This document shows, piece by piece, positions 2 to 35,004 of a DNA stretch of 64,000 nucleotides. The notes under the pieces were generated by a model. That model saw only the letters and a program-made list of their open reading frames with translations, did no database searches and was not told where the DNA came from. Position 1 is the first letter of the stretch. Every line of letters begins with the position of its first letter. A program made the position numbers and the translations under genes. Source of the stretch: Desulfobacterales bacterium (GTDB lineage Bacteria; Desulfobacterota; Desulfobacteria; Desulfobacterales; UBA2245); assembly GCA_040771865.1 (NCBI GenBank), contig JAXGZF010000007.1, forward strand, positions 1 to 64,000, given 5' to 3'.

Positions 2-205
2 TACGTGCCCGGCGACAGCCTGGTAATGATGGACACCTCGAATCTGGACGACGAGGAAACGCCCGATCCGGCCGCCACGGCCATGGAGAAGAATTTCTGG
101 CTGAGGGAGTTTCTGATCACCCGGGCACAGGGCGAGCGCAATCCGTTCGAACCCACGGAAAACATCCGGATCACGATCACGGATGAAGAGACCGAGGAGG
201 CTTGA
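2..205 (+). CDS. 3' end of an upstream gene (partial); probably the C-terminus of a large secreted cargo protein
   Basis: The frame is open from the window edge (YVPGDSLV...) to TGA at 203-205 and is followed by a terminator. The acidic tail contains FWLREFL...NPFEPTENIRITI. The cargo identity is inferred from the neighbouring export genes only. Confidence 0.6.
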   Translation, partial: YVPGDSLVMMDTSNLDDEETPDPAATAMEKNFWLREFLITRAQGERNPFEPTENIRITITDEETEEA

Positions 206-237: not shown

Positions 238-283
238 AAAGGGAACCCGAGTCGCTCTCGTCGGCCAGGGTTCCCTTTTCTTT
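238..283 (+). terminator. Rho-independent terminator
   Basis: Inverted repeat AAAGGGAACCC (238-248) / GGGTTCCCTTT (268-278) followed by TCTTT, about 30 nt after the stop codon. Confidence 0.7.
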
Positions 284-549: not shown

Positions 550-2547
550 ATGGCCGATTGCCAGACAAAACCAAAAATTATCTGGGATGAGCGCGGGGCA
601 AATCATGTCCGGACGGATTCCTGCACCATTGTCGGGTCGCGCGAAGAAATTTCCCTGCTTTTCGGCAACGAACCGGGAGGGAATTCGGGCGATGTCCGCT
701 TTACCAATCGGGTCATTCTCAATCCCTTTACCGCAAAGCAATTGTCGTCCGTCCTGAACGGGGTGATCCGGGATTACGAAGCCGTATTTGGCCCGCTGTC
801 GGAGACGAGTCCGCATTCGACTCAGGACGATGCGACCAGGGAGCAAAAATCATCCTTTCTTTTTCAACTGGTCAAGGAGCTGGATGTTTCCGTCGGATAC
901 GAGCGGTCTTTCAAAATCCTTGAAAGGTCTCTGCTGTCCGACCGCTTTCTGCTGGGCATCAGCAAGAAGGAAATCGAATACAAGGCCCAGGACCGGATCA
1001 TCCATGCCTGCGAGCAGATGGGAATGCCGCAAAGTCTGCTGGAGATCTTCGGCCAATGCCTGGTTGAGGCCAATTACGTCCATTTCGGTTTCGAAGATGA
1101 TGGCGCATCCTGCATTTACAAGGTTTATGTTGAATTCTGGGACCGCATCAAAGAGACGCTGAAAAACCCCCAGAATGCCGCCGGGCCCCACCTGCTGCAC
1201 CTCGGCTTCAAGTGGAACCCCTTCGAACCGGAGAAAAAAGCCATCACGCGCTATACCTGGCACCCCTGGCTCACCGAAGTGCAGATCCTCGACAGGGTAA
1301 GGGCCATAGCCGATCCCGGCAGGCACGGCCATGTCTTTGAAGCAGCGAAGGCGCTGATAAACATTGCCGCGGCGCGCATGCCCCACCAGGATGTTCTTTA
1401 CCTGGAGGTCACCGAAGCGGACAACCCCAGAAAATCGTTTGACATCAACGTATACCGGGGCGGGCTTCTGGTCGGGGAACTCTATCCCTTACTGGCCAGG
1501 CTCGGCCAGCATTATAACATTCCCTATGCCCCGTTTCACGAGCTGTACAATCAGGTCAAGACGGAAAGATTCGGCCACCTTTCAGGCGGCATCAACCGGG
1601 ACGGCAAGGACTTTTGCACCGTATATTACGGTGTGGCGCCGATCCAGGAAGATCGGACTCGCCGGACCGTCTCTACCGGCTTGGGCCGGCTCCGGCATTC
1701 GGACGATCCTTTCTCGGTCGAGAAAACCGATGCCCAGGCCGGCGTTCTTCTTGAACGGGTCAGAAACCTCGGTGTGCCGTTCGGATTCGAACGTTCCTTC
1801 AAGGTTACTCAGAACATCTTTCTCCCGGATCGCTTCCTGGCCGGCTTCGAACGCAAGGAGGTGGTACAGCGGGAACGCGTTCTGGAAATCTGCCGGAACA
1901 TCAACATGCCGGCCGATTTTCTGGAGCGCTTCGAGGAGAAATATTCTGCCGCAAACATCGTTCTTTTCGGCTTTGAAAGGAACGAAAAAGGCTTCATATA
2001 CAAGGCCTATCTCGAGTTCATTGACAAACTTCAAACAGCAGTCGATGTGAACCCGGACGACCCCGAACCTTTTGAGATGTTTACCGGCTTCAAATGGGAG
2101 GGCGACGATCCGTCGCGCAAAGTTCAGACCCGCTATACCTGCTTTCCGTCCTATGTCTTGAAAGACATGGCCGATCAGACGGCGCGGTTTTTCCTCCCGA
2201 CGACAAAGACCGAACCCGCCTCAATCGTCCACGGAATACTCGATCTGGCCTCGCACAGGGCCGGGCCGCGGGAATTTCTCTATTTCGAAGCAAACGAGGC
2301 CGGCACTGACAGATCCTCGTTTTCCATCAATCTTTACCGCGCCGGGCTGCGCATGGCGGAGGCATACCCCCTGCTGCTGGACATGACGCGTTATTACGCG
2401 ATTCCGAAGGATGCATTCCACCGGGCCTATGAGGCATCCAAAACACAGATTCTGGGCAATGTTGCCGGCGGCATCGACCGGCAGGGAAGAAATTTTCTAA
2501 CCTTTTATTACGCCCACAGGGGAAGTTCGAGAAAGGGGAAGCCCTGA
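550..2547 (+). CDS. DUF3467 domain fused to two tandem ABBA-type (LynF/TruF/PatF-like) prenyltransferase-like domains
   Basis: aa 1-85 (IIWDE...REEISLLFG...RVILNPFTAKQL...YEAVFGPL) clearly align with the ORF at 6152. An internal duplication of period about 296 aa follows (YERSFK..DRFLLG / FERSFK..DRFLAG; IYKVYVEF / IYKAYLEF; GFKW; GGI.R.G..F..YY). The prenyltransferase call rests on recalled similarity. Confidence 0.6.
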   Translation: MADCQTKPKIIWDERGANHVRTDSCTIVGSREEISLLFGNEPGGNSGDVRFTNRVILNPFTAKQLSSVLNGVIRDYEAVFGPLSETSPHSTQDDATREQKSSFLFQLVKELDVSVGYERSFKILERSLLSDRFLLGISKKEIEYKAQDRIIHACEQMGMPQSLLEIFGQCLVEANYVHFGFEDDGASCIYKVYVEFWDRIKETLKNPQNAAGPHLLHLGFKWNPFEPEKKAITRYTWHPWLTEVQILDRVRAIADPGRHGHVFEAAKALINIAAARMPHQDVLYLEVTEADNPRKSFDINVYRGGLLVGELYPLLARLGQHYNIPYAPFHELYNQVKTERFGHLSGGINRDGKDFCTVYYGVAPIQEDRTRRTVSTGLGRLRHSDDPFSVEKTDAQAGVLLERVRNLGVPFGFERSFKVTQNIFLPDRFLAGFERKEVVQRERVLEICRNINMPADFLERFEEKYSAANIVLFGFERNEKGFIYKAYLEFIDKLQTAVDVNPDDPEPFEMFTGFKWEGDDPSRKVQTRYTCFPSYVLKDMADQTARFFLPTTKTEPASIVHGILDLASHRAGPREFLYFEANEAGTDRSSFSINLYRAGLRMAEAYPLLLDMTRYYAIPKDAFHRAYEASKTQILGNVAGGIDRQGRNFLTFYYAHRGSSRKGKP

Positions 2548-2551
2548 GAAA

Positions 2552-3499
2552 ATGAACCTGACGGCGCCACCGGACGCTCAGGCCATGATCGGCGGCAGGA
2601 TCGATTTCAGCAGATACTGCGTGATTTCGATATGGTTCGGTTGCAACAACAACTGCACCATCTGCATGCTCGGAGCGGTGAAAAGCGGCCTGCCGGCGAT
2701 CAGCTACGAGGGATACCGAAAGGTCGTCATCGACATCATGCGAGACGGCCGGTTCGAGAACCTGATTCTCTCGGGGGCGGAAGTGACCACCTTTGACGAC
2801 TTGGATCGCTACGTGCGGTGCGCAGCGTCCCTGGGATGGTTCAAAAGAATCCAGATCCAGACCAACGGCAGGCGGTTGCGTGATCCGGAATATCTGGATC
2901 ATCTGATCGATTGCGGGGTGAACGAGTTTTTTGTCAGCATTCACGGGCTCGCGGAAACCCATGACGCCGTCACCCGCGTTCCGGGATCATTCGGCGAAAC
3001 CCTGGCTGGGCTGAGAAATCTTTCCGGCCGCAAGGCCAATGTCATCAGCAATACGGTTTTGACCCGGAACAATTTTTCGGAAATTCCAGGCCTGGTGCGT
3101 TTCCTCTGCGCGAAGTGCGTCAGCGAGATTCATTTATGGAACTATTTTCCCATGGAATCCACCGACAAACGGAATCTGCTGGTGCCTCTCGGGGATTTGA
3201 TGAACATAGTGCCGGAACTACGGCAGATCGTTCAGGCCGCCGGCAAGCCGCTGGTGTTGAAAAGCTTTCCCCTGTGTCTGGCCGTCGAGGCGCCGGTTTA
3301 CCTGGACAGTGTATTTCCGGTGACGGTGCTTCCGGATCTCTTCTGGAAACAGTTCGGGGAGTGCGGGTTCGGAAGGTGCGTGCACCGCGAGGCCGGCGCG
3401 TGCCGTACAAAGGAGTGCTGGGGCCTTTGCAGCGCCTATCTGGCAAAATACGGCGACGAAAAAACCCTGCTTCGGCCGATAACGCCGCCCCGATTCTAG
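2552..3499 (+). CDS. Radical SAM protein with C-terminal Cys-rich extension
   Basis: CNNNCTIC (CxxxCxxC), SGAEVT (GGEP-like), IQTNG, VSIHG...HDAVTRVPGSF; C-terminal CGFGRC...C...CWGLC..Y...YG. Confidence 0.9.
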   Translation: MNLTAPPDAQAMIGGRIDFSRYCVISIWFGCNNNCTICMLGAVKSGLPAISYEGYRKVVIDIMRDGRFENLILSGAEVTTFDDLDRYVRCAASLGWFKRIQIQTNGRRLRDPEYLDHLIDCGVNEFFVSIHGLAETHDAVTRVPGSFGETLAGLRNLSGRKANVISNTVLTRNNFSEIPGLVRFLCAKCVSEIHLWNYFPMESTDKRNLLVPLGDLMNIVPELRQIVQAAGKPLVLKSFPLCLAVEAPVYLDSVFPVTVLPDLFWKQFGECGFGRCVHREAGACRTKECWGLCSAYLAKYGDEKTLLRPITPPRF

Positions 3500-3568: not shown

Positions 3569-4429
3569 ATGCCTTCGATCGAATACGAAAGCGCCCAAGA
3601 GACATTTTACGATTTTTGCCTGTGGCCGTACCGGCCGTCCGTTCCGTATGAGAACAAGTTCAAATCGGCCAATCTGCTGTTTCATTCCTTTGAGGTCGAA
3701 GGAATGGACGACCGGGGCGTCGACATGGTGCAGGCCATTCGGAAAGAAATCGGCCATTCCCGCACGGTATGGGGAGTCAAACGCCTTGGCGAGGATATTC
3801 GGTGGGAATTCTATTTTTATGACTATCGGAGAAAGGAAAGGGAAACCTCCGTCGGCAGAATCCTGAAAACGTGCAGACCTTTTTTCGCTTGCGATATCGG
3901 GATCAACGAGAATTTTCATTATTTCATGTTCTCCATCGACGTCGATCATGACCTCGTTACCGGTTCGAAGGACCTGGACGAAATTCATCTGTATATCGGC
4001 AACCCGGGCAGCAGTGTTTCCTCCGGGATCTGCTATTCCATGAAAAAGCGGCACACGCGTCTGGAGAACTTCTACTTCTTTTTCGACGCCCGAAATCAGT
4101 GGAAGGAAATCCTGGCAAAGCTGTCCTGTTCGGTTCATTACGATGCCGCCCGGTGGAAAGCCGAGCGCATCCTCTGGCCGGAACTTCAGGACTGCAAGAT
4201 CATCGTTGTCGCCAACAAGCAGGAGAACGATGCGGTTTATTTTTCGGGCATCCATGTCGATCAGCTGATCTTTTTTCTCAAGAGAATGCACTATAACCCG
4301 GAGCTGGTGACCTTTGTAGAAACCAATCGGTTCATGCTGGACCATCTGCGCTATGACATCGGGTTCGATTACCGGATTGAGGGAAACGAGATGAAGATAT
4401 TGAAAAGCGCTTATTACGGGGTGTTCTGA
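3569..4429 (+). CDS. Hypothetical protein, aromatic-rich; possible prenyltransferase-barrel fold
   Basis: 286-aa ORF with a GGAG RBS; its stop overlaps the next start (TGATG). The fold is inferred from the strand pattern only. Confidence 0.75.
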   Translation: MPSIEYESAQETFYDFCLWPYRPSVPYENKFKSANLLFHSFEVEGMDDRGVDMVQAIRKEIGHSRTVWGVKRLGEDIRWEFYFYDYRRKERETSVGRILKTCRPFFACDIGINENFHYFMFSIDVDHDLVTGSKDLDEIHLYIGNPGSSVSSGICYSMKKRHTRLENFYFFFDARNQWKEILAKLSCSVHYDAARWKAERILWPELQDCKIIVVANKQENDAVYFSGIHVDQLIFFLKRMHYNPELVTFVETNRFMLDHLRYDIGFDYRIEGNEMKILKSAYYGVF

Positions 4430-6042
4430 TGATGCCGGAGAATGAGGAACACGTAGTTCTCGTCAATGCCGAAGGCGAGGATCTCATCGATGGCGACGGC
4501 CGAATCGCAACCCTGGAAAAGCTTGCCGCCCACCTTCAGGGCCGCCGCCACCGGGCGATTTCGGTCTTCATCTTCTCATCGCGCGGAGAGGTGATGCTGC
4601 AGAAGCGGGCCGCGCACAAATACCACAGCGCCGGCCTGTGGTCCAATACCTGCTGCACCCACCCGAGGCCCCACGAAATTCCGGCCGACGCGGCCCGGCG
4701 AAGGCTGCATGAGGAAATGGGCCTCAGTTGCCCGATCGAGGAGGTTTTCACCTTTTCCTATTCGGCGGATGTAGGCAGCGGGTTGATAGAAAATGAATTC
4801 GACCACGTTTTTTTCGGGTTTTGCGACGCCTCTCCGGCAGTCAATCCGGATGAGGCGGCTGACTGGAGATGGACGCCCATCGATGAGTTGCGTACTGAGC
4901 TGGTCGCTTCCCCCGATCAATACGCGCCCTGGTTGCGGTATTGTTTTCCGGCAGTTCGAAGCCATTACTACGAGCGCCGACCCGAGGCGACCCGCGACCC
5001 GGCAGGCGACGCAGGTCGGGACCCTGTCTTCGATTATCTCTGCGTGGATGATTTTCTTCAGGATATCGTCGCTGCCCGGTCCCTGGCCACGGCTCTCGAA
5101 CTGGGCCTCATCGACCGAATCGGCCGCCATCCCGGCGTCACCCGTGAGGATATGAGCATCGCACTGCGGATCGATGCCAGAGGCATGGCGCTGCTGATCG
5201 GCCTGCTCAAGGACAACCGGGTCATCGAAGAAAACGACGGCCTCCGGCTCACCAGGTTGTTCGAAAAGGCCATGGCCTTCCGGGATGTTCTGGAGGCCAG
5301 GATCGCTTTCGCGCATGTTGCCCTGCCGGATTTTTCCCGTCTTTTTACGCCGCTGATCGCGTCGCCCGATCAGTTTGCCCGCCATGCGAAAATTTTTGAA
5401 TTTTTCGGCTACAACCGCTGTTCCGAAAACAGCCCGACGGCCCGGGAACTGACCAGCCGCTGGATGCGGATCACCACCTCCCTGACGAAGTACGAATCCC
5501 GGGTCTGTCTGAAGCATCATGACTTTAGTCCTTATCGGCGTATAATGGACATCGGCGGAAACAGCGGTGAGTTCATGCTTCGGGTGTGCCGGAAACACCC
5601 GGATATTCACGCGACTGTTTTCGATCTTCCCCTGGTTTGCGATCTCGGAATGACCCATGTTCATCGCGAGCCGGAAGCGTCGCGGATCACGTTTGTCAAG
5701 GGCAATGCCCTGCAGGATGAATTTCCCGGCACGTACGACCTGATCTGCTTCAAATCCATGCTCCACGACTGGCCCGAAAAACAGGCGGAATATTTACTTG
5801 CCAAGGCGAGCCGTTCTCTACAGCCCGGCGGGACCCTGCTGGTTTTCGAAAGGGGCGCAATCGCGGACGAAAACCCGCCTCGGTTCTATTCCACCATCCC
5901 CCTGTGCCTGTTTTTTCGGTGTTTCCGATCTCCTGAGTGGTATGCGGGGCACTTGCGCCGGCTCGGCTTTCAGAACATCCGGATCGAGGAAATCGACATG
6001 GACATGCGGTTTTCTCTGGTAACGGGAACCGCAGCCGCATAA
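4429..6042 (+). CDS. idi: Type 1 isopentenyl-diphosphate isomerase fused to a Methyltransf_2-type SAM methyltransferase
   Basis: N-terminus: HRAISVFIF, LQKRA..KYHS.GLWSNTCCTHP, RRLHEEMG, ENEFDHVF (Nudix IDI-1). C-terminus: wHTH-like dimerisation region, MDIGGNSGE, VFDLP, KGNAL, KSMLHDWP. Confidence 0.9.
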   Translation: MMPENEEHVVLVNAEGEDLIDGDGRIATLEKLAAHLQGRRHRAISVFIFSSRGEVMLQKRAAHKYHSAGLWSNTCCTHPRPHEIPADAARRRLHEEMGLSCPIEEVFTFSYSADVGSGLIENEFDHVFFGFCDASPAVNPDEAADWRWTPIDELRTELVASPDQYAPWLRYCFPAVRSHYYERRPEATRDPAGDAGRDPVFDYLCVDDFLQDIVAARSLATALELGLIDRIGRHPGVTREDMSIALRIDARGMALLIGLLKDNRVIEENDGLRLTRLFEKAMAFRDVLEARIAFAHVALPDFSRLFTPLIASPDQFARHAKIFEFFGYNRCSENSPTARELTSRWMRITTSLTKYESRVCLKHHDFSPYRRIMDIGGNSGEFMLRVCRKHPDIHATVFDLPLVCDLGMTHVHREPEASRITFVKGNALQDEFPGTYDLICFKSMLHDWPEKQAEYLLAKASRSLQPGGTLLVFERGAIADENPPRFYSTIPLCLFFRCFRSPEWYAGHLRRLGFQNIRIEEIDMDMRFSLVTGTAAA

Positions 6043-6151
6043 AACCGCATAAAAGATTGATGTTACCGAAAAAAAAGCATATAAAGAGAACGTTTACAGC
6101 TCGTTTGGATCAACTCAAACCACTTCAAAAATCCAAAAAGGAGGAATACCC

Positions 6152-6490
6152 ATGGCAGATCAGAAAGATGAGAATGTCGATAAAACAGGGCAGGCGGCCG
6201 GCCAGCCCCGAATCGTCTGGGATGACGCCAACATGCGAAGCGTTTACTGCAATGTTTCCAATGTTGCCGGCGGTCGCGAAGAAATCGTGCTGCTTTTCGG
6301 CATGAACCAGGCCTGGCATGCGGGGCAGAAAGAGATCAAGGTCCAGCTTTCCGACCGGATCGTGATGAGTCCCTTTGCCGCCAAACGGCTGTCACTCCTT
6401 TTGAACAACGTGCTGGCGGATTATGAAAAGCGCTTCGGAAGACTGGACATTGGTGTTCCCCAGGCACCGCCATCGACCACCATCCAGTAA
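6152..6490 (+). CDS. DUF3467 family protein
   Basis: IVWDDANMRSVYCNVSNV.GGREEIVLLFG...RIVMSPFAAKRL...YEKRFGRL; strong RBS AAGGAGG. Confidence 0.85.
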   Translation: MADQKDENVDKTGQAAGQPRIVWDDANMRSVYCNVSNVAGGREEIVLLFGMNQAWHAGQKEIKVQLSDRIVMSPFAAKRLSLLLNNVLADYEKRFGRLDIGVPQAPPSTTIQ

Positions 6491-6498
6491 AATACCAG

Positions 6499-6527
6499 GG
6501 GGCTTCCGGGCCGGAAGCCCCTTCTTT
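6499..6527 (+). terminator. Intra-operon hairpin/terminator after DUF3467
   Basis: GGGGCTTCCGG (6499-6509) / CCGGAAGCCCC (6511-6521) followed by TTCTTT. Confidence 0.65.
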
Positions 6528-6574
6528 CATCGCTTCGACAAACAATATTCTGTGATTACAGGCACGGCTCGCAT

Positions 6575-8482
6575 ATGAACCAGAACACTGCAGATCGCAA
6601 CGAAACTCGTTTGCTGGAAAGTCCGGACGGATCGGCGTCGAGACCGGTATCCGACCAAGATTCTCTGTTCTGGCAACATTTTGCTCAGGCCAAGACTCCC
6701 AAGGCCTTCTGCCAGAGCTGGCTGCCCCTGCAATGCGGCATGTTGAGAAGCGTCAAGCACGCCATTGTGCTGATAGGAAACCCCGACCAAGGTCCTTACA
6801 CTCCGGTCGCGGTATGGCCGGATGCCAAACTCAGCATGAGCCACCTTGCCGGAACCGCCGAACGCTCCATCCGCGAAAGACGCGGCCTGCTGGTGGACAA
6901 AAACGGCGGCCCCCCTGCCGTCAAGGGCGCTTCCGAAACCTGCCAGATTGCCTATCCCATCGAGGTGGCCGGCAAGATTCACGGCGTGGTCGTCATGGAA
7001 GTCGAAGCGCCTTTCAAACAGGACGTCCAGGCCCTGATGCGCCAGCTCCACTGGGGCGCCGCATGGCTCGAGGTTCTCATCCGGCGCAGGGAGTCGGCCC
7101 GGAACGCGGAAGAAAGCGAACGGCTTCGCAACGTCATGGACCTGACGGTCAGCATGGTGGAGCATGATCAATTCTATCCCTCCGCCATGGCCTTGGTCAC
7201 CCGTCTGGCCACGGTGCTGGACTGCGACCGGGTCAGCCTGGGAGTGCTCAAGGGCAACCATGTCAAGGTCGCGGTGTTGAGCCACAGCGCGGATTTCAGC
7301 GAACAGACCAACCTCGCCCGGGCCATCGGTCTGGCCATGGACGAAGCCGTCGATCAGAAGGCCGCGATCAACTACCCTGCCGGACCCGAAGAGAGCCCCC
7401 TTTTCACGCGTGCCCACGCGGAACTTGAACGGCTGATGGGCTCCGGTTCGATTCTGACCATTCCTTTGGTGGAAAACGAGTGCATCATCGGCGCATTGAC
7501 CCTTGAACGCTCCGCGCAAAAGCCTTTTGACCGACAGACGGTGGAATTCTGCCAGAGCGCGGCCGGCATTCTGGCGCCTATTCTGGAGATCAAGCGGCGG
7601 GAGGATCGCTGGCTGATCCGCAAGGCGTCCGAATCCCTGTCGATACAACTGAAACGATTTCTGGGTCCGGGATATCTGATCCGAAAGCTGGTCGCCGCCG
7701 CACTGATTGTCCTGGTCGTATTTTTCGCTCTGTTCAAGGTCGATTATCGGGTAACCGCGGACAGCGCCATCGAGGGCGAAGTCAAAAGGGCGATCGCCGC
7801 CCCGTTCAACGGCTACATCAAAGAGGCGCCCATCCGGGCCGGGGACGTGATCATGAAAGGACAGGTAATCTGCCTCCTGGATGACCGGGACCTGAAGCTG
7901 GAACGTTTCAAATGGGCCACCGAACGGGAGCAGACGACCAAACAGTACCACGAAGCCATGGCCAAGCACGATCGGCCCAACATCCAGATCACGAAGGCCA
8001 AGATCGGTCAGGCCGAGGCACAGATCGATCTGCTGGATGAACAGCTTTCACGCATCAAGATGACGGCCCCCTTCGATGCGGTGGTGATCAGCGGAGATTT
8101 GAGCCAATCGCTGGGCGCCCCGGTCGAGCGGGGCCAGGTGCTCTTCGAGGTGGCCCCTCTGGACGAGTATCGCGTGATCATCGAGGTCGACGAACGGGAT
8201 ATCGCCGACATTCAGGTGGGTCAGAAAAGCGAATTGATCTTTCCCTCCATTTCCGGAGAGACCTTTCCCTTTATCGTGCGGAAAATCACGCCGGTAACCA
8301 TTTCCAGGGAGGGTCGCAACTATTTCCGCGTGGAAGGACAGCTCGAGAAGGCGACCGAGCGCCTGCGGCCCGGCATGGAAGGTGTGGGAAAAGTCACCGT
8401 GGATCGGCGGCGGCTGATCTGGGTGTGGAGCCACAAGGCAATCGACTGGGTACGCCTCAAACTGTGGCAATGGATGCCCTGA
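6575..8482 (+). CDS. GAF-domain HlyD-family membrane fusion (periplasmic adaptor) protein
   Basis: GAF-like region (CDRVSLG...AMDEAVDQ...ILTIPL...IGALTLER), one TM helix, lipoyl half-motifs (APFNGYI...GD; APFDAVVISGD...GAPVERGQVLFEVA), LRPGMEG. Confidence 0.85.
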   Translation: MNQNTADRNETRLLESPDGSASRPVSDQDSLFWQHFAQAKTPKAFCQSWLPLQCGMLRSVKHAIVLIGNPDQGPYTPVAVWPDAKLSMSHLAGTAERSIRERRGLLVDKNGGPPAVKGASETCQIAYPIEVAGKIHGVVVMEVEAPFKQDVQALMRQLHWGAAWLEVLIRRRESARNAEESERLRNVMDLTVSMVEHDQFYPSAMALVTRLATVLDCDRVSLGVLKGNHVKVAVLSHSADFSEQTNLARAIGLAMDEAVDQKAAINYPAGPEESPLFTRAHAELERLMGSGSILTIPLVENECIIGALTLERSAQKPFDRQTVEFCQSAAGILAPILEIKRREDRWLIRKASESLSIQLKRFLGPGYLIRKLVAAALIVLVVFFALFKVDYRVTADSAIEGEVKRAIAAPFNGYIKEAPIRAGDVIMKGQVICLLDDRDLKLERFKWATEREQTTKQYHEAMAKHDRPNIQITKAKIGQAEAQIDLLDEQLSRIKMTAPFDAVVISGDLSQSLGAPVERGQVLFEVAPLDEYRVIIEVDERDIADIQVGQKSELIFPSISGETFPFIVRKITPVTISREGRNYFRVEGQLEKATERLRPGMEGVGKVTVDRRRLIWVWSHKAIDWVRLKLWQWMP

Positions 8483-8526
8483 CCGGCTGATGGCGGCAAA
8501 AAGCAAAAGATGAAGACCGAACGCCC

Positions 8527-10674
8527 ATGACCGATTCCCTCTACAGCCCTTCCTGGTATCGTGTGGCAAGCCTGAAGCCACGCCTTCGGGGACATGTGCA
8601 GATTCATCGCCACCACTACCGCGGCGAACTCTGGTACGTGCTCCAGGATCACCTGTCCGGCCGCCTTCAGCGGTTTACGCCTATGGCCTATCAGCTCATC
8701 GGAATGATGGACGGCAAGCGGACCGTGCGGGAGATCTGGGAGCATGCCTGCGCCACGCTTCAAGCCGACGCGCCGACCCAGGAGGACATGATCCGCATCC
8801 TGAGCCAGCTCCACGCCGCCGATGCCCTGCAGTCGGACGTGGTTCCAGACACCGCCGAAATGCTGAAACGGTTCGAAAAGCAGCGCTACAAGAAGTGGAA
8901 GCAAAACCTGCGCAGCCCGTTGTTCATGCGGTTTCCCCTGCTCGATCCGGAACGGTTTCTGATCAGATTTCAATTCCTGGTACACCCCTTTTTCAGCTGG
9001 TGGGGACTGATCCTCTGGCTGGCGGTGGTAAGCGCGGGCGTCTTTCTGGTCGGCGTTCACTGGTCCGAGCTGACGCTGAACATGACCGACCGCATCCTCT
9101 CTCCCGGCAACCTGGTGGTCATGTGGTTGACCTTTCCTTTTCTCAAGGCCTTTCACGAATTCGCCCACGCCTTTGCCGTCAAGCTCAAAGGCGGCGAGGT
9201 GCACGAGATGGGGATCATGATGCTGGTGTTCACCCCCATCCCCTACGTGGATGCATCGTCCGCTTCCGGATTCCGGGAAAAGCGCAGCCGCGTGTTCGTG
9301 GGCGCGGCCGGACTGATGGTGGAAATCTTCATCGCGGCCCTGGCTGTTTTCGCCTGGGTCAACATGGAACCCGGCCCGGTCCGCTCCGTGGCCTACAACG
9401 TCATCTTCATCGCCGGCGTCTCATCGCTGTTCTTCAACGGCAACCCGCTGCTGCGCTATGATGCATACTACGTTCTGTCAGATGTCCTGGAAATTCCGAA
9501 TCTCGGGACCCGAGGCATCCGATACATGCTCTATCTGATCCAGCGCTACCTTCTCGGCATCAAGCAGGCCGAACCGCCCCTTTACAGCCAAGGCGAGCGC
9601 TTCTGGTTCGCTGCATATACCATTTCTTCGACCATCTACCGGCTCTTCGTCTATGCGGCCATCATCCTCTTCGTAGCCAGCAAATTTTTCTTCATCGGCG
9701 TTCTTTTCGCCTGCGTGGGAGTGGTAAACATGTTCGCCCTGCCGGCTTACAAAGCCGTCAAATTTCTATCCACTTCGCCGATGCTGGCCCGCACCCGTCC
9801 CCGGGCGGTTCTGGTGACAGGACTGATCGTCGTCCTTGGAGCGGCCATGATCGGCATCGTTCCGGTTCCCCTGGCCACCCTGACCGAAGGCGTGATGTGG
9901 CTGCCGGAAGAAACTTTCGTACGTGCCGGAACTGATGGGTTCGTAGAACGCATCCTCGCCGAGCCGGGCAAACCGGTGAAACGCGGTGACCCGCTGGTCG
10001 AATGCTCCGACCCGCTGCTGCCGGCCCAGATCCGTCTCCTGGAGGCTCAGAAGCGCGAGATGGAAGTAGTCTACGATACGCATTTGATTTCCGACAAGGT
10101 CAAGGCCGAAATTGCCAGAGAAGAAATCGAACACATTGCCGTCAAGCTCGAAGATGCCCGGGAAAGACTGGGTGATCTGACGATCCACAGCAGCACGGAC
10201 GGAATCTTCATTCTGCCGATGGCCGACGATCTGCCGTCCTCGTTTGTCCAGCGCGGCCGGTTGATCGGCTATGTGGTGAGCCGTTCCACGGTGTCCGCCC
10301 GGGTCGTGGTTTCCCAGGCAGATGTGGATCTGGTGCGGCAGCGAACCCGTCAGGTCAGCGTGCGGCTGCCGGAGCAGCTGTCGAAAATCCTGCCGGCGGA
10401 GCTGCAGCGTGAGGTTCCGGCGGCCACGGATCAGCTCCCGGGCATGGTTCTGAGCCAGGAAGGCGGGGGCAAGATCGCGACCGACCCCCGCGAGGGTTTC
10501 GGCAACAAGGCGTTTCAGAAAATCTTTCTTTTCGACATCACCCTCCCCTCCCATGCGGGTATCTATCATGTCGGCGGAAGGGTGCATGTCCGGTTTGATC
10601 ACGGAATGGAGCCGATCGGTTTTCGATGGTACAGGGGGTTGCGGCAGCTGTTCCTGAAGAGGTTCAATGTATAG
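8527..10674 (+). CDS. M50 (site-2) metallopeptidase with N-terminal PqqD-like domain and C-terminal HlyD-like domain
   Basis: HEFAH (HExxH), FNGNPLLRYDAYY, several TM helices; N-terminal MDGKRTVREIW...ILSQL; C-terminal lipoyl/coiled-coil adaptor pattern. Confidence 0.85.
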   Translation: MTDSLYSPSWYRVASLKPRLRGHVQIHRHHYRGELWYVLQDHLSGRLQRFTPMAYQLIGMMDGKRTVREIWEHACATLQADAPTQEDMIRILSQLHAADALQSDVVPDTAEMLKRFEKQRYKKWKQNLRSPLFMRFPLLDPERFLIRFQFLVHPFFSWWGLILWLAVVSAGVFLVGVHWSELTLNMTDRILSPGNLVVMWLTFPFLKAFHEFAHAFAVKLKGGEVHEMGIMMLVFTPIPYVDASSASGFREKRSRVFVGAAGLMVEIFIAALAVFAWVNMEPGPVRSVAYNVIFIAGVSSLFFNGNPLLRYDAYYVLSDVLEIPNLGTRGIRYMLYLIQRYLLGIKQAEPPLYSQGERFWFAAYTISSTIYRLFVYAAIILFVASKFFFIGVLFACVGVVNMFALPAYKAVKFLSTSPMLARTRPRAVLVTGLIVVLGAAMIGIVPVPLATLTEGVMWLPEETFVRAGTDGFVERILAEPGKPVKRGDPLVECSDPLLPAQIRLLEAQKREMEVVYDTHLISDKVKAEIAREEIEHIAVKLEDARERLGDLTIHSSTDGIFILPMADDLPSSFVQRGRLIGYVVSRSTVSARVVVSQADVDLVRQRTRQVSVRLPEQLSKILPAELQREVPAATDQLPGMVLSQEGGGKIATDPREGFGNKAFQKIFLFDITLPSHAGIYHVGGRVHVRFDHGMEPIGFRWYRGLRQLFLKRFNV

Positions 10675-12664
10675 AGACATGACCCATCCGTGGGGGTTGG
10701 ACGGCGTTTATCCCGAACGGGAGGAACGTCGCAGCTCCGGAAAGGTTCACGGCCGTTCGACCGGTCTGGAAGGCTTTCGCGCCCGCCGGCGGCGGCCTAG
10801 TCCTAAAAGCGGCCAATGGATCGTTGAGGCCGTCAAGACAGGCCAATCCACACTGAGCGATGCGACCGACGAGGAAATTCTCGAGGCGGCCCGCCAGTTG
10901 CGACCTCTGCTGAAAAAGCAGGGACTGACGCAGGAACTGGTGGGCCGGGCCTTCGGGCTGGTACGCGAAGCCTCCTGGCGGCACTTGCACATGGCGCATT
11001 TCGATGTCCAGTTGATCGGCGGATGGGCGCTGCTCAACGGCATGGTGGCGGAGATGGAAACCGGGGAAGGGAAAACCCTGGTCGCCTCCCTGCCGGCCTG
11101 TACCCTGGCGCTGGCCGGAGTGCCGGTGCACATTATTACGGTCAACGATTATCTGACCGCCCGCGATGCCGACTGGATGTCTCCTCTGTACAAGGCACTA
11201 GGGCTGACTGTGGGGACCATTGTTCACGGCAAGGACCCGGCAGCCCGGAAGGAAGCCTATCGCTGCGATATCACCTACTGCACCAACAAGGAGGTGGCTT
11301 TCGATTATCTGAGAGACCGGCTTGTGCTTTCGGACCGTCCCAGTCAGCTGCGTCTTTCGGTGGAGCGGTTGTATGGCGAGACGTCGCGCCTCTCCAGGCT
11401 GGTGATGCGCGGGCTTCACTTCGCCATCGTGGATGAGGCCGACAGCGTGCTGATTGACGAGGCCCGGACCCCTCTGATCATTTCCAGCCAGTCCGACAGC
11501 CTTTACGGCGAGAATGTCTACCGGCTGGCCATGGAGCTGGCCGGATCACTGGTCGATGGAAAGGATTTTCTGGTTTCCGAAACCGATCGCATGGTGGAGC
11601 TGACGCCGGCGGGCCGGCTCAAAATCGATGGCACAGATTGGGCCGAAGCCAGCCCCAACATCAATGAACAGCAGAAGGAGCAGCTCGTCCGTCAGAGCCT
11701 GACCGCATTGCATCTGTTCAAGCGGGACAAGCAGTACCTCGTCAAGGACGGCAAGGTTCAGATCGTCGACGAGTATACCGGACGTCTGATGGCGGACCGT
11801 TCCTGGGAGATGGGGCTTCACCAGCTCATCGAGGTCAAGGAGGGATGCGAGGTGACCCTGCCCAAGCAGACCCTGGCGCGCATCAGTTATCAGCGGTTTT
11901 TCAGCCGATACCTGGGTCTTGCCGGCATGACCGGAACCGCTCGGGAAGTGGCCGGTGAGCTCTGGTCGGTCTATCGTATGCCAGTGATCTCCATCCAGAC
12001 CAACCGACCTGTCCGGCGCCGGTATCTGCCCGACCGGATCCATGCCTCGTCGGATGAAAAATGGAGAGCTGTGGTGCAGACTATTTCACGGGAGCATGCC
12101 GAGGGCCGGCCGGTGCTCGTGGGAACCCGGTCCGTCGAAGCCTCCGAGCATCTGAGCGGCCTTCTGGAACAGGAAAATCTGCCCCACAAGGTGCTCAATG
12201 CCCGGCAGGACAAGGAGGAAGCGGAAATCATCGCCATGGCCGGAAATGTGGGACGGATCACCGTGGCCACCAACATGGCCGGACGGGGGACGGATATCCG
12301 CCTGAGCGAGGGTGTTACGGACCTGGGCGGGCTCTTTGTCATCGCCACCGAACGCCATGAAGCCCAGCGGATTGATCGACAGCTCTTCGGCCGCTGCGGC
12401 CGGCAGGGAGATCCCGGCGCCTGCGTCGCCATGGTTTCTCTCGATGACGAGCTGGCCACCGTGCATGCCAAGGGAGTGCCCAGGTGGATCGGTATCCTGG
12501 CGGCCAAAACCGGCATCGAATTCCTGTCGAGATGGGCGGGCGCCCTGGTATTCTGGTACGCACAACAATCGGCGCAGCGCCAGTACGCGCGCATACGTCG
12601 CAACCTGCTGAAAATGGATGACCGGATCGGCGAGTCCCTCGCCTTTTCGGGTCGACCCGAGTGA
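10667..12664 (+). CDS. Secondary SecA-like (SecA_DEAD) ATPase, lacking the canonical C-terminal wing/scaffold
   Basis: EMETGEGKT, TVNDYL..RD, FDYLRD, IVDEADSVLIDEARTPLIIS, GMTGTA, VATNMAGRGTDI, RIDRQLFGRCGRQGDPG; only 665 aa. Confidence 0.9.
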   Translation: MYRDMTHPWGLDGVYPEREERRSSGKVHGRSTGLEGFRARRRRPSPKSGQWIVEAVKTGQSTLSDATDEEILEAARQLRPLLKKQGLTQELVGRAFGLVREASWRHLHMAHFDVQLIGGWALLNGMVAEMETGEGKTLVASLPACTLALAGVPVHIITVNDYLTARDADWMSPLYKALGLTVGTIVHGKDPAARKEAYRCDITYCTNKEVAFDYLRDRLVLSDRPSQLRLSVERLYGETSRLSRLVMRGLHFAIVDEADSVLIDEARTPLIISSQSDSLYGENVYRLAMELAGSLVDGKDFLVSETDRMVELTPAGRLKIDGTDWAEASPNINEQQKEQLVRQSLTALHLFKRDKQYLVKDGKVQIVDEYTGRLMADRSWEMGLHQLIEVKEGCEVTLPKQTLARISYQRFFSRYLGLAGMTGTAREVAGELWSVYRMPVISIQTNRPVRRRYLPDRIHASSDEKWRAVVQTISREHAEGRPVLVGTRSVEASEHLSGLLEQENLPHKVLNARQDKEEAEIIAMAGNVGRITVATNMAGRGTDIRLSEGVTDLGGLFVIATERHEAQRIDRQLFGRCGRQGDPGACVAMVSLDDELATVHAKGVPRWIGILAAKTGIEFLSRWAGALVFWYAQQSAQRQYARIRRNLLKMDDRIGESLAFSGRPE

Positions 12665-12673
12665 CGGAGTTAA

Positions 12674-13510
12674 ATGATGTTCAAGCGCATGACAACCCTA
12701 TTACAAGCCGCGATTTTCCTGTTGATGCTTCTTGGCGGGGCCGCCGGATTTGCGTCAGCCGACAGTTCCGAGCCCGAGTTCGACGGGCTCATCGAACCAT
12801 ACCGGGTGGCGGAAGTGGGCAGTGAGGTGCCCGGCATCCTCGACAGCGTCAAGGTCGAACGCGGCGACATGGTCAAAGCGGGCCAGGTGGTGGCGACGCT
12901 GCGCTCGGGCGTCGAGGCGGCCAATCTGGAGCTGGCCAAAGCCCGGGCGGAAATGGATGCCAATGTCCAGTTGAAGCGTTCGGCTCTGGAATTTGCGAAA
13001 AGAAACAGCCAGCGCATGAAAGAACTGTATGATGCCAAGGCCCTGGCCTTTCAAAAATGGGACGAGGTGGAAACCCAGCGGATCATGGCTGAAAAGGAAC
13101 TGACGGTTGCCCTGGAACAGAAACAGCTCTTCGAGCTGGAACACCGACAGGCCGATGAACTGCTTAGACGCAAGACGATTCAGAGCCCGTTAACAGGCGT
13201 GGTTATGGAGCGCTACCTTTTCAAGGGGGAGTATGTTGAAAACAATCCGATCCTCAAGATCGCTCAGATCAATCCGTTAAACGTAGAAGTGGTGATGCCG
13301 GTTTCACAGATCGGCAGAATCAAAATCGGCACAAAAGCCACGGTAAAGCCCGAAGACCCCTTGGGCGGGACGCGTCAGGCGGTCGTCACCATCGTGGACA
13401 AGGTGATGGACGCGGCCAGCGGCACCTTCGGAGTGCGTCTGGAAATCCCCAATCCAATGCATGAAATTCCGCCAGGCTTGAAATGCAGGGTGCTTTTCCA
13501 AAAACCCTGA
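12674..13510 (+). CDS. Efflux RND/HlyD-family periplasmic adaptor subunit
   Basis: N-terminal signal peptide, VERGDMVKAGQVVA, coiled coil, IQSPLTGVV, DAASGTFGVRL...PGL. Confidence 0.9.
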   Translation: MMFKRMTTLLQAAIFLLMLLGGAAGFASADSSEPEFDGLIEPYRVAEVGSEVPGILDSVKVERGDMVKAGQVVATLRSGVEAANLELAKARAEMDANVQLKRSALEFAKRNSQRMKELYDAKALAFQKWDEVETQRIMAEKELTVALEQKQLFELEHRQADELLRRKTIQSPLTGVVMERYLFKGEYVENNPILKIAQINPLNVEVVMPVSQIGRIKIGTKATVKPEDPLGGTRQAVVTIVDKVMDAASGTFGVRLEIPNPMHEIPPGLKCRVLFQKP

Positions 13511-13586
13511 TTCCACCCTGCCCCGGTCCTCCGGCGCCTGGAGGAAAATTGATCATTATGAAGCCATCAAGCAGAGGAAATCGAAA

Positions 13587-14918
13587 ATGAGCCCTAAAAC
13601 AGCCCTTATGCTGATCATCACCGCTGTTTGGCTGCCCCTGATCGTTCCACCTCAGGAGGCTGCGGCCACGGAGACGCATGAGCCACAAATCTACACCCTG
13701 GAAGCAACCATCGCCGAAGCTCTGAAAAACAACTGGGACCTCAAGGCCCTGGAAGAAAAATTAACCCAGGCCCAGGAGGTGAAAAAACAGGCCAGAGCTG
13801 ATTTCCTGCCCCGTTTAAAGACCAGTTACTCCTATACCGGACTCGATGAGCCCTCCAATTACGAATCGAGCTATGGCGGAAACATCGCCGTCAGCTCCAG
13901 AGAGAGTTTCCAGTGGCGCAGCACCGTAACACAGCCGATTTTTGCGGGATTCGGTCTGATCAGCGCCTATCGACTCGCCGAACTGGGCATCGACCAGTCT
14001 GAAATGCAAATCGAGTTGAACAAGCTGGATCTCGCCCTGAAGGTCAAGGAAGCCTATTTCGGTGTGCTGGTCATGGATAAAACCGTCGAGGTGGCCCTGA
14101 AAGAAGTCGAATCTCTCGCCTCCAATGCCGAGGTGACCCGAAGCTACTACAATGCCGGGGTGGTGCCGGTCAACGATCTGCTCAAGGCGGAGATGGAGCT
14201 TGCCGACGCCCAGCAAAAACTGGTCCAGGCCCGAAACCAGGCGGCTCTGGCCCGCTCTGCCCTCAACATCATCCTGGCCCGCCCGGTCAACGCGGCGGTC
14301 GATCTCGAGGATATCCTGGTGTATACCACCGAGACGGCTGTCTTCGAAGACAGCATCGGTATTGCCCTGAAAAACCGGCCGGAAATCCGGCTCATCGACA
14401 TCGATCTTCAGCGCGCCGAGCAGAAGATCAGGCTAACCAGGCGCGGATACTATCCGGAGGTCAACCTGGCGTATGACTACATCAAAGAGGGTGACTCGGC
14501 CGACGTGTCCGGAAGCCTATATCATGACGAAAAACGGTGGCAACTCGCGGTGGCCGCTTCCTGGACCTTGTGGGAATGGGGTAAAACCCACTTTGCCGTA
14601 AGGCAGGAAGAAAGCGCTCGTGAAGAGCTCATCAAGACCCGCAAGGCCATTGAAGACAACGTTCGGCTGGATGTGCGGGAAGCCTTGCTGTACATTTCAA
14701 CCGCCGAACAGAACATCCCCACCACCGAGAAGGCCGTGTTGCAGGGTGAGGAGAACCTGAGAGTCACCCAGGAAGGCTACCGTGCCCAGGTCAATACCGT
14801 CTCCGACGTGTTGGATGCCCAAGCCTTGCTGACCCAGGCCAGAGTCAACTATTACAAGGCCATGTACACGCACAGCCTGGCCAAAGCCCAGCTGTCGCGG
14901 GCCATGGGAACCTATTGA
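13587..14918 (+). CDS. TolC-family outer membrane channel
   Basis: Signal peptide, YTLEATIAEALKNN, ARADFLPRL, QPIFAG, ALKNRPEI, YYPEVNL, DVLDAQ; duplicated OEP pattern. Confidence 0.9.
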   Translation: MSPKTALMLIITAVWLPLIVPPQEAAATETHEPQIYTLEATIAEALKNNWDLKALEEKLTQAQEVKKQARADFLPRLKTSYSYTGLDEPSNYESSYGGNIAVSSRESFQWRSTVTQPIFAGFGLISAYRLAELGIDQSEMQIELNKLDLALKVKEAYFGVLVMDKTVEVALKEVESLASNAEVTRSYYNAGVVPVNDLLKAEMELADAQQKLVQARNQAALARSALNIILARPVNAAVDLEDILVYTTETAVFEDSIGIALKNRPEIRLIDIDLQRAEQKIRLTRRGYYPEVNLAYDYIKEGDSADVSGSLYHDEKRWQLAVAASWTLWEWGKTHFAVRQEESAREELIKTRKAIEDNVRLDVREALLYISTAEQNIPTTEKAVLQGEENLRVTQEGYRAQVNTVSDVLDAQALLTQARVNYYKAMYTHSLAKAQLSRAMGTY

Positions 14919-23281: not shown

Positions 23282-24268
23282 ATGAATCAGCAGGATCTGA
23301 GCAGAAAAATCAAAAAACTGGAAGATGATTTGGAATTTTTTCAAGGTGAAAGCAGCCGATTGAAAACGGAATTTGTGATGGAAACCAGCCCATCCAAACG
23401 GTTCATGATCAATAATGATAGCAAAAAAGCCGAATTTAATATCCGTGCTATCACGGAAACACTGGGTATCCTTAAAGGCAAGATAAGAGAATCGGAGGAG
23501 GAAGAGATGGACGGCCGAAAATCAATTAAGATCTTTATTAGCCATGCAGAAGCTGATGCGCAAATTGCAGAATTGCTTGTTAATCTTCTCCTGTCTTCGC
23601 TATCCGTGGTCGATGATGAAATCCGTTGTACGTCAGTTTCGGGTCATCAGTTGCCTTTTGGAAATATATCTCAGATATTAAAAGATGACCTCCGACTAAG
23701 TCCAATAATAACCGCCTTAATAACAGAAACCAGCTTGGCTTCAAAGTGGATGATGTTTGAACTTGGTGCCGCGTGGGCTCTCAATAAAACAGTAATTCCA
23801 ATTATCGCACCGAACCTTACTCACAAAGATCTGCCTGGACCTTTGGGCGCTGACTCCTGCATTCAGATCTGTAATCCTGATGCTCCCAGCAGAATCAGAG
23901 ATGCATTGAAACAAATATCACTTGAACTGAAAGTCGAAGAAAAGACTGGGGGAAAGTCGCAATCTAATCTCGATAGATTCTTGTCAGGATGCCATGCAAA
24001 CTCAAAACAGAACAGATCCTCGGATCAAGGGCATGCAAATCTCGTACACCAATTAATTAATATTATTAAAAAAATGAGGGGGTTGGGAACTAAACCTACA
24101 CCACGGAAAATCGCCAAAAAGTTGGACGTTGATCCTGAAATAGTTTTGGCACATTTGAGGCGCATGCATGACGATCTGCTTGTAACCTATTTCACATCAG
24201 AAGGGTTTAGCATGGATAGCGAGCTTATATTGGGAGAAAAAAGCTTCAGTACAGATTTTCTCGAATAA
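23282..24268 (+). CDS. TIR-domain protein with N-terminal helical region and C-terminal winged-HTH-like region
   Basis: KIFISHAEAD, SLASKWMMFELGAAWAL (catalytic Glu position); C-terminal PTPRKIAKKLDVDPEIVLAHL; visibly more AT-rich than its flanks. Confidence 0.85.
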   Translation: MNQQDLSRKIKKLEDDLEFFQGESSRLKTEFVMETSPSKRFMINNDSKKAEFNIRAITETLGILKGKIRESEEEEMDGRKSIKIFISHAEADAQIAELLVNLLLSSLSVVDDEIRCTSVSGHQLPFGNISQILKDDLRLSPIITALITETSLASKWMMFELGAAWALNKTVIPIIAPNLTHKDLPGPLGADSCIQICNPDAPSRIRDALKQISLELKVEEKTGGKSQSNLDRFLSGCHANSKQNRSSDQGHANLVHQLINIIKKMRGLGTKPTPRKIAKKLDVDPEIVLAHLRRMHDDLLVTYFTSEGFSMDSELILGEKSFSTDFLE

Positions 24269-34991: not shown

Positions 34992-35004
34992 CAGCAGCCG
35001 GTTT

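Follow-up and report, generated by a model that had tools for sequence, protein, structure and literature searches.

Fusions of isopentenyl diphosphate (IPP) isomerase with other isoprenoid enzymes are known, and in these proteins its partner either makes or consumes C5 diphosphates. Prenylation and methylation occur within one pathway, with one of the partners fused, in the linear cyanobactins, where AgeMTPT is reportedly a methyltransferase fused to a prenyltransferase. For eukaryotic CaaX processing, the abstract of PMC13533914 gives the order of events as prenylation, cleavage and carboxymethylation, and literature abstracts on RTX toxins describe lysine acylation and the parts of a type 1 secretion system. 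The locus analyzed here has likenesses to each of these systems, and is found in the first 64,000 nucleotides (hereafter the window, forward strand) of contig JAXGZF010000007.1 from a Desulfobacterales bacterium (assembly GCA_040771865.1). Its gene D encodes a predicted type-1 IPP isomerase fused to a Methyltransf_2 domain, and belongs to a modification cassette (genes A to D) that is followed by an export module (genes E to J) and preceded by the end of a giant RTX-type gene. The architecture is new, while its theme, the joining of an isomerase to another member of a pathway that uses isoprenoids, is known. We hypothesize, with about an even chance of being right (a probability near 0.5), that gene D serves the cassette as an accessory enzyme with two activities, and would supply dimethylallyl diphosphate (DMAPP) to the ABBA-fold proteins A and C and methylate the acceptor or the product, the likeliest acceptor being the C-terminal region of giant RTX proteins.

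The gene D open reading frame (ORF) begins with an ATG that shares one base, position 4429, with the TGA stop of gene C (4427-4429) and encodes 537 amino acids. In Pfam, NUDIX is assigned above its cut-off to residues 40-169 (E 9.7e-21) and Methyltransf_2 (PF00891) to residues 335-482 (E 3.2e-24, 85.9 bits against a gathering score of 22.3). The NCBIfam equivalog for isopentenyl-diphosphate Delta-isomerase, NF002995, reaches 151.3 bits over residues 4-171 (cut-off 127), and TIGR02150 scores 101.5 bits, slightly below its cut-off of 105.8. When aligned with Idi of E. coli (PDB 1i9a; also 1nfs) over E. coli residues 3-162, the residues H34, H41, C76, H78, Y111, E122, E124 and W168 of gene D correspond to H25, H32, C67, H69, Y104, E114, E116 and W161, and all of them are retained in 10 of 10 fused homologues; we take them to comprise the catalytic Cys and Glu and the His and Glu metal ligands. 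The N-terminal half of gene D thus appears to be an intact type-1 isomerase, which, in contrast to the E. coli enzyme, forms one domain of a larger protein. The motifs NTCCTHP and ENE and the linker RRPEATRDPAGDAGRDP (residues 183-199) lie in a single frame, and the preliminary description of this DNA, which had proposed an intact IDI-1 joined by a charged linker to a Methyltransf_2 domain in one frame, agrees with Pfam, NCBIfam and the alignment to 1i9a.

In the C-terminal half, the motifs DIGGNSGE and SMLHDWPE are found, of which G376-E381 and H446-W448 are invariant across 19 sequences; the glycine-rich motif presumably binds S-adenosylmethionine (SAM), and the LHDW histidine is, we assume, the one conserved in Methyltransf_2. 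The N-terminal dimerisation domain PF08100 gives only 15.3 bits in gene D (E 0.017, cut-off 25.6), is present in the precomputed annotation of many homologues and reaches E 1.7e-6 in an Anabaena homologue (locus L033). Among PDB sequences, the closest relatives are the family-2 O-methyltransferases DtpM (8rdm), DsyB (7wdw), DnrK, ASMT (4a6d) and SibL (4qvg), with E values from 2.6e-19 to 2.3e-14. The substrates of these enzymes are small molecules, which they methylate on N, S, O or C, DtpM being an amide N-methyltransferase according to a published abstract, and consequently the family does not fix the target atom of gene D. None of the five is fused to an isomerase, as gene D is.

The fusion is genuine and rare. 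A search of 5.8 billion clustered proteins returned nine further fused clusters from four source collections, 532-559 amino acids long and 53-90% identical with 98-100% query coverage, all with both Pfam domains, and 537 amino acids is the length of 6 of the 10 fused proteins. In a set of 41 genomes from the order, made up of one for each family and those of the same genus, a full-length match was found only in the genome itself and in G001, of the same genus, in which the fusion is 89% identical and free of stop codons; in a second Desulfobacteraceae record (L017) it is 58% identical. The junction proposed at 4975-5025 is bridged without a difference by two RNA-library contigs, X6 (4871-5122) and X7 (4874-5122), and the DNA contig X1, possibly from the source sample, covers 4000-6500; run X2 yielded no single contig over 5007-5035, which is uninformative since contigs drop out. 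An assembly artefact as the origin of the fusion is ruled out by the nine clusters, the G001 copy and the RNA contigs across the junction, and both the domain architecture and the junction given in the preliminary description are thereby confirmed. Between 4000 and 6500, the contigs of the two metatranscriptome libraries cover just the linker region (4871-5122), apart from a 56-base piece of X6 at 6275-6330 with 5 differences; RNA stability, DNA carry-over and chance are all possible causes of this pattern.

The isomerase halves also speak to the history of the fusion. In a tree of 144 isomerases, the 10 fusions and one truncated form, broken after the linker, make up one split with a support of 0.957, and their isomerase halves are 69-90% identical to each other, as opposed to at most 60% for full-length stand-alone isomerases (two truncated forms excepted). 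On this tree the fusion arose once and is restricted to one Desulfobacteraceae lineage. The methyltransferase halves have diverged to 51-58% identity, and more than 1000 stand-alone methyltransferase relatives of about 350 amino acids, 50-63% identical, were found in the clustered-protein search; the isomerase gene was joined to the front of a methyltransferase gene already in the cassette. A point against the single origin is the methyltransferase tree, which splits the fused proteins into three groups whose connecting nodes have weak support (0.49), so that the origin demonstrated on the isomerase tree is not demonstrable there. One relative (P0011) retains just a C-terminal remnant of the isomerase and another (P0137) is broken after the linker. 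In G001, a fragment 80% identical to isomerase residues 37-91 is located about 42 kb upstream of the intact fusion (C10:31173-31337), within an open frame of 119 amino acids, and is possibly a gene remnant.

A total of 80 loci were fetched via the methyltransferase from species-representative genomes and searched by tblastn with the proteins of the window. At least one other cassette gene was present in 75 loci, gene C in 68, the radical SAM gene B in 67 and gene A in 51; of the five loci without any (L055, L059, L060, L075 and L095), four are short contigs or end near the gene. The distance between C and D is below 400 bp in 39 of the 68 loci, and 66 have both genes on one strand. The taxonomic labels of the records are Desulfobacterota, Nostoc, Anabaena, Oxalobacteraceae and other Burkholderiales (Betaproteobacteria), Geobacter, Rokubacteria, Planctomycetota and Acidobacteriota, among others, and gene C was found in 4 of 301 genomes sampled evenly across the phylum. 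Genes A to D are accordingly a conserved modification cassette spread over many phyla. The isomerase half was found in only two of the loci, L016 and L017, both labelled Desulfobacteraceae, and the fusion always lies within the cassette, beside the prenyltransferase-fold genes. In public records the key genes are named "hypothetical protein", "methyltransferase" or "SecA", and no description of the cassette or of an IDI-Methyltransf_2 fusion was found in the literature searched. Some versions hold additional genes: two extra radical SAM genes between A and B in a Geobacter-labelled locus (L062:4699-7346), one with a UPF0004 (methylthiotransferase-type) N-terminus; a SapC-family protein gene upstream of the methyltransferase, inside the cassette, in Anabaena (L033:9126-9926); and, in Herminiimonas (L030:9279-9956), a gene for a small AAA/STAND-like NTPase that separates the export genes from the modification genes.

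Genes A and C together are predicted to hold three unannotated domains of the ABBA prenyltransferase fold. The AlphaFold model of gene C, built from 43 homologues, has a predicted local distance difference test (pLDDT) score of 93.1 and a predicted template modeling (pTM) score of 0.91, and the matches listed by Foldseek against the PDB are prenyltransferases only, with TM-scores of 0.34-0.52; the best is AmbP1 (E 1.5e-7), and the others include FamD1, AmbP3, KgpF, DciF, LimF, CloQ, EpzP, NphB, PirF and CymD. A second structural aligner (VIA) gave Z 13.2 and a root-mean-square deviation (rmsd) of 4.1 with 244 of 286 residues aligned, and 121 chains at Z of at least 8, and a language-model search gave PTase_Orf2 and DUF5838 as leads (scores 0.84-0.89). 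In gene A, Pfam assigns DUF3467 to residues 7-84; in the AlphaFold2 model of residues 1-387 (pLDDT 85.1, 29 homologues in the alignment), residues 93-366 match CymD, 5-DMATS, PriB, IptA and others, all listed matches again being prenyltransferases, with Z up to 17.0, an rmsd of 3.7 and 256 aligned residues, and the second half of the gene (1711-2544) repeats the first ABBA domain with 35% identity (E 8e-59). On their predicted strands, both proteins have Lys, Arg, Tyr and Glu positions that do not vary. At the thresholds used, no Pfam or NCBIfam model, including PTase_Orf2, Trp_DMAT and the cyanobactin F family, matched gene C or gene A beyond DUF3467. The profile comparison between A and C was not significant either (E 0.23), so that their common fold is read from the predicted models. 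This fold is that of the ABBA/DMATS and cyanobactin F-family prenyltransferases (CymD, FgaPT2, AmbP1, PagF, KgpF, LimF, DciF), and a passage in PMC13290415 attributes to the cyanobactin enzymes the barrel of ABBA enzymes, low sequence similarity and peptide substrates. In contrast to these enzymes, to which A and C have no detectable sequence similarity, gene A bears a DUF3467 domain and a duplicated barrel; moreover, the Pfam and NCBIfam scans of the operon revealed neither a cyanobactin protease nor a precursor gene.

Gene B matches the Pfam Radical_SAM family (E 2.1e-17) and its translation has a CxxxCxxC motif; the top NCBIfam model, HxsC4, scores 94.6 bits, far below its cut-off of 500. 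Natural fusions of a radical SAM domain with C were found in 4 of 13 long members of the gene C family examined, and four fusions of an A-like domain with C were read by eye, showing that A, B and C work together. The gene C family comprises 580 representative clusters (E of at most 0.001) among 1.84 billion proteins. In one giant repeat protein (P0345, 3798 amino acids), the final 180 or so residues correspond to the C-terminal two-thirds of an ABBA protein of the gene C type, either a real cargo-enzyme fusion or an artefact of gene calling or assembly.

The supply of prenyl donor was considered next to these putative consumers. The window contains dxr (33810-35369, minus strand) in a housekeeping uppS-cdsA-dxr-rseP operon and the genome has one IspH, so that the methylerythritol phosphate (MEP) route already supplies both C5 units, as the preliminary description, pointing to dxr in the window, had stated for IPP and DMAPP. 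It had further argued that an isomerase carried by a gene cluster usually signals a demand for DMAPP by a prenyltransferase, and the three predicted ABBA-fold domains in two adjoining unannotated genes support this argument. Isomerase fusions elsewhere point in the same direction: among 24 proteins of 295-940 amino acids with a similar isomerase domain, nine are the fusion described here, and 10 of the other 15 have an isoprenoid enzyme as partner, namely terpene synthase (4), an enzyme of the mevalonate-diphosphate decarboxylase type (3), polyprenyl synthase (1), IspH (1) and squalene/phytoene synthase (1). Gene D differs from these fusions in that its partner is a methyltransferase, itself no user of prenyl diphosphates as far as can be told, and the presumed consumers of DMAPP, A and C, are encoded by separate genes.

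Table 1. Genes and other features at the start of the window
Feature	Coordinates	Strand	Description
Giant RTX-type gene, 3' end	2..205	+	Last 67 codons (bases 2-202) and stop; gene cut by contig start; tail W-x3-F ... P-x3-I-x-I
Terminator-like hairpin and U-tract	241..283	+	3' of the giant gene
Gene A	550..2547	+	N-terminal DUF3467 and two predicted ABBA prenyltransferase-fold domains
Gene B	2552..3499	+	Radical SAM enzyme, Cys-rich C-terminus
Gene C	3569..4429	+	Predicted ABBA prenyltransferase-fold protein, 286 aa
Gene D	4429..6042	+	Predicted type-1 IPP isomerase, about nt 4438-4941; linker 4975-5025; Methyltransf_2, about 5023-6039
Gene E	6152..6490	+	Small DUF3467 protein (Pfam E 7.5e-22); first gene of the export module
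Gene F	6575..8482	+	GAF domain fused to HlyD-type periplasmic adaptor (Pfam/NCBIfam)
Gene G	8527..10674	+	PqqD-like N-terminus, M50/site-2-protease-like membrane domain (HEFAH), HlyD-type adaptor
Gene H	10667..12664	+	SecA-like ATPase, 665 aa, without C-terminal SecA_SW
Gene I	12674..13510	+	Short HlyD/RND-type adaptor (Pfam/NCBIfam)
Gene J	13587..14918	+	TolC-family outer-membrane channel (Pfam OEP E 1.4e-58)

Downstream of gene D, the six genes of the export module (Table 1) include three HlyD-type proteins and one OEP protein, with an RTX giant adjoining the operon. Among the 11 operon proteins scanned with Pfam and NCBIfam, neither an ABC transporter nor an acyltransferase was found. Gene H matches SecA_DEAD (E 4.7e-103), SecA_PP_bind and P-loop_SecA; no SecA_SW was detected even at E up to 1, and every NCBIfam SecA and SecA2 model stays below its cut-off. 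The "SecA-like" passage in PMC3482391 concerns other proteins. In gene G, Pfam finds PqqD (E 7e-4), Peptidase_M50 (E 1.2e-3, 18.7 bits against 27.2) and HlyD_3, and the NCBIfam model for daptide intramembrane metalloproteases gives E 4.1e-39 (134.8 bits, below its cut-off of 300); fused to HlyD and co-occurring with SecA-like export genes, this M50-like domain may act in export or processing. RseP (32733-33803), in the dxr operon, is a second, ordinary M50 protease unrelated to the cassette. Across the 80 loci, gene E is present in 37, H and I in 25 each, and F and G in 24 each, gene E being directly upstream of F in many of them. As DUF3467 is common to A and E, the two may share a docking site, either on the cargo or on the export machine. 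Gene E was also considered as a precursor peptide and rejected, for in 25 aligned homologues the domain core is conserved and both ends are variable and short. Taken as a whole, the module (6152-14918) resembles a type 1 secretion system without the ABC transporter, and recurs with the cassette in about 24-25 of the 80 loci. Between E and F, a perfect GC-rich palindrome of 10 bp with a 3-base loop (6499-6521), listed as terminator-like on the minus strand, could be an attenuator or a processing site. Unrelated to the fusion, a 665-residue protein without Pfam match is encoded at 20446-22443 and followed by a TIR-domain protein at 23282-24268.

Upstream of the cassette, the giant protein's tail can be aligned to the C-terminus of a giant ORF, 1922 amino acids or longer, in the same-genus locus L016; this ORF has RTX repeats, Calx-beta domains and an HExxH motif. 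Two more giant open frames with nearly the same tail, of 9444 and 6782 amino acids, are found in contig C8 of the genome to which the window belongs (about 23300-52000 and 52170-72500). Eleven aligned tails from Desulfobacterota, Nostoc and Burkholderiales follow the pattern W-x3-F ... P-x3-[IVF]-x-[IVL], in which W, F and P never vary, and seven other giant tails close with a basic-aromatic motif whose Trp is the last residue or nearly so. In 21 of the 80 loci there is an ORF with four or more GGxGxD repeats, and giants without this motif occur in others, such as a DUF4347 protein in Anabaena. In the 301-genome sample, a giant RTX ORF lies within about 10 kb in 4 of 4 cassette-positive genomes, and the tail profile matches strongly in 2 of these 4 and weakly in 1 of the 297 others (E 1.2e-4). 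In cyanobacteria, where no export genes are found within 10 kb, the four modification genes still adjoin giant proteins. The last 325 or so residues of the C8 giants are 68-70% identical to the cassette-adjoining giant of a genome of the same genus, with a metzincin-like motif, HEIGHALGY, some 100 residues ahead of the tail. The small ORFs that follow the Anabaena cassette are wrong-frame readings of a giant gene. On the 3' side of the giant gene of the window, the RNA fold of 225-300 has -27.7 kcal/mol (z -2.28) and is followed by UUUUCUUU; the consensus terminator scan did not list this hairpin.

From these components we propose the following series of events. The isomerase half of gene D would convert MEP-derived IPP to DMAPP beside its consumers A and C, as its fold and context suggest. 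The methyltransferase half would be the Methyltransf_2 enzyme native to the cassette, which none of its versions lacks. Its most likely target is the acceptor of the prenyl group or the product that carries it, methylated at an O, N, S or C atom, and the donor is probably left unmethylated. The likeliest acceptor would be the conserved region at the C-terminus of the giant RTX-type proteins, and the SecA-like/M50-HlyD/HlyD/TolC module would afterwards export these proteins; this choice of acceptor, together with its export by the module, is the weakest step, tentative and clearly below even odds. The fusion probably helps to attach and finish a lipid-like prenyl mark. In its fullest form, the cassette would be a bacterial protein-lipidation system in which ABBA enzymes, held by DUF3467 to the cargo or the export machine, prenylate the tail of the giant, adhesin-like RTX proteins, the radical SAM enzyme and the methyltransferase finish the mark, the M50 protein trims the tail, a SecA-like ATPase with HlyD/TolC parts powers export in place of an ABC transporter and the isomerase fusion feeds DMAPP. 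Such a bacterial counterpart of prenylate-cleave-methylate is a scheme that is unlikely to hold in every part.

The described systems resemble this proposal by analogy. AgeMTPT differs from gene D in that its methyltransferase is fused to the prenyltransferase, and that of gene D to the isomerase that would make the donor. With eukaryotic CaaX processing the cassette has in common three enzyme types, a prenyltransferase-fold protein, a membrane metalloprotease-like protein and a methyltransferase, from which we infer a possible prenylate-cleave-methylate order; however, the enzymes belong to unrelated families, and no Cys is present in the last 67 residues of the giant of the window or of its two paralogues, so the acceptor of a CaaX box is missing. 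RTX toxin activation, with acylation of the HlyC type and type 1 secretion, is similar in the presence of giant RTX proteins beside modification genes and a HlyD/TolC-type conduit, and differs in having a SecA-like ATPase and an M50-HlyD fusion instead of the ABC transporter and the acyltransferase, and modification genes that suggest prenylation.

Several results weigh against our proposal. The ABBA fold that A and C share with prenyltransferases in the models does not prove prenyl transfer, and in profile searches of PDB sequences the best match to gene A had E 1.1 and gene C gave nothing relevant. The isomerase of gene D is the only type-1 match in the genome, in which no type-2 isomerase passed the cut-off, and could therefore serve general metabolism; furthermore, 78 of the 80 loci have no isomerase within 10 kb of the methyltransferase, and hence DMAPP supply is not limiting in general. 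With respect to the acceptor, 59 of the 80 loci have no RTX ORF in the DNA examined, many being short contigs, and several non-RTX giants were seen. The tail Trp is replaced in both Anabaena giants, whose motif is followed by about 290 more residues in the giant adjoining the cassette and by about 50 in the second, and the tail profile found no match in 4 of 5 further cassette genomes. The invariant Trp as a universal prenyl acceptor is weakened by these Trp-less giants and by the four genomes without a tail match. A complex prediction for gene A (residues 1-387) with the 67-residue tail scored 0.00 against a mark of 0.32; made without controls, it counts neither for nor against binding.

The same cassette chemistry could instead act on a small diffusible metabolite of the indole or phenol type, pumped out by HlyD/TolC, with the RTX genes nearby through a shared exporter or linkage. 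The structural matches of A and C include enzymes for free tryptophan or small aromatics (CymD, DMATS, AmbP1, CloQ, NphB), the nearest solved methyltransferase relatives all use small molecules, and the operon showed no gene for a short precursor peptide. Nevertheless, gene A has the same DUF3467 domain as the export protein E, the exporter includes a SecA-like ATPase bearing a preprotein cross-linking domain as well as a protease-like protein in which a PqqD-like domain would recognize peptides, and the cyanobacterial loci lacking nearby export genes still pair the modification genes with giant proteins. We consider a metabolite acceptor unlikely, though deserving of serious attention.

Compared with a protein or a metabolite as the methylated partner, methylation of the prenyl donor itself, in which IPP or DMAPP would become C6 or C7 diphosphates, handed over directly by the fused isomerase and transferred by the ABBA proteins, is improbable. 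Fusion does bring the two active sites close, and a passage in PMC10881772 describes SAM-dependent methyltransferases of IPP, geranyl diphosphate and farnesyl diphosphate. However, the domain of gene D is a Methyltransf_2, no prenyl-diphosphate methyltransferase is named in the best 60 of its 73 PDB sequence matches, and the methyltransferase does without a nearby isomerase in nearly all loci (the 78 of 80 above). Its LHDW histidine is, we assume, typical of acid-base methyl transfer to heteroatoms. Of the three options offered by the preliminary description, namely the donor, the acceptor and a new terminus, methylation of the donor is thus the least likely, because of the enzyme family and the rarity of the isomerase.

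It is hardly probable that the fusion has no meaning for the pathway, a housekeeping isomerase having been joined to its neighbor with the halves working independently. The absence of any other isomerase in the genome would fit such an accident, as would the loss of the link in P0011 and P0137. In contrast, the fusion was kept at the same length in most of its members while the methyltransferase halves drifted apart, the isomerase halves stay closer to each other than to any full-length stand-alone isomerase, and the fusion was never found outside the cassette. Finally, that A and C are ABBA-fold binding or scaffold proteins without prenyl transfer, the Nudix-fold half of gene D using another diphosphate compound, is very improbable: A and C do lack a sequence-level match to known prenyltransferases, and PatF, a cyanobactin ABBA protein said to be inactive, is among their structural matches, but gene D scores above the isomerase equivalog cut-off and lacks none of the catalytic residues, and A and C retain many of the invariant residues on the predicted barrel strands.

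The fusion has the role of a Rosetta stone, which ties an isoprenoid-donor enzyme to an unannotated cassette and, by this link, led to three unrecognised domains of predicted prenyltransferase fold. If it is true that giant secreted proteins are prenylated, the cassette would represent a new kind of bacterial protein lipidation, together with a type-1-like exporter driven by a relative of SecA. If the product is a small molecule, it would be a new and widespread pathway for prenylated natural products. Either way, A and C would be very divergent new ABBA enzymes and candidate biocatalysts.

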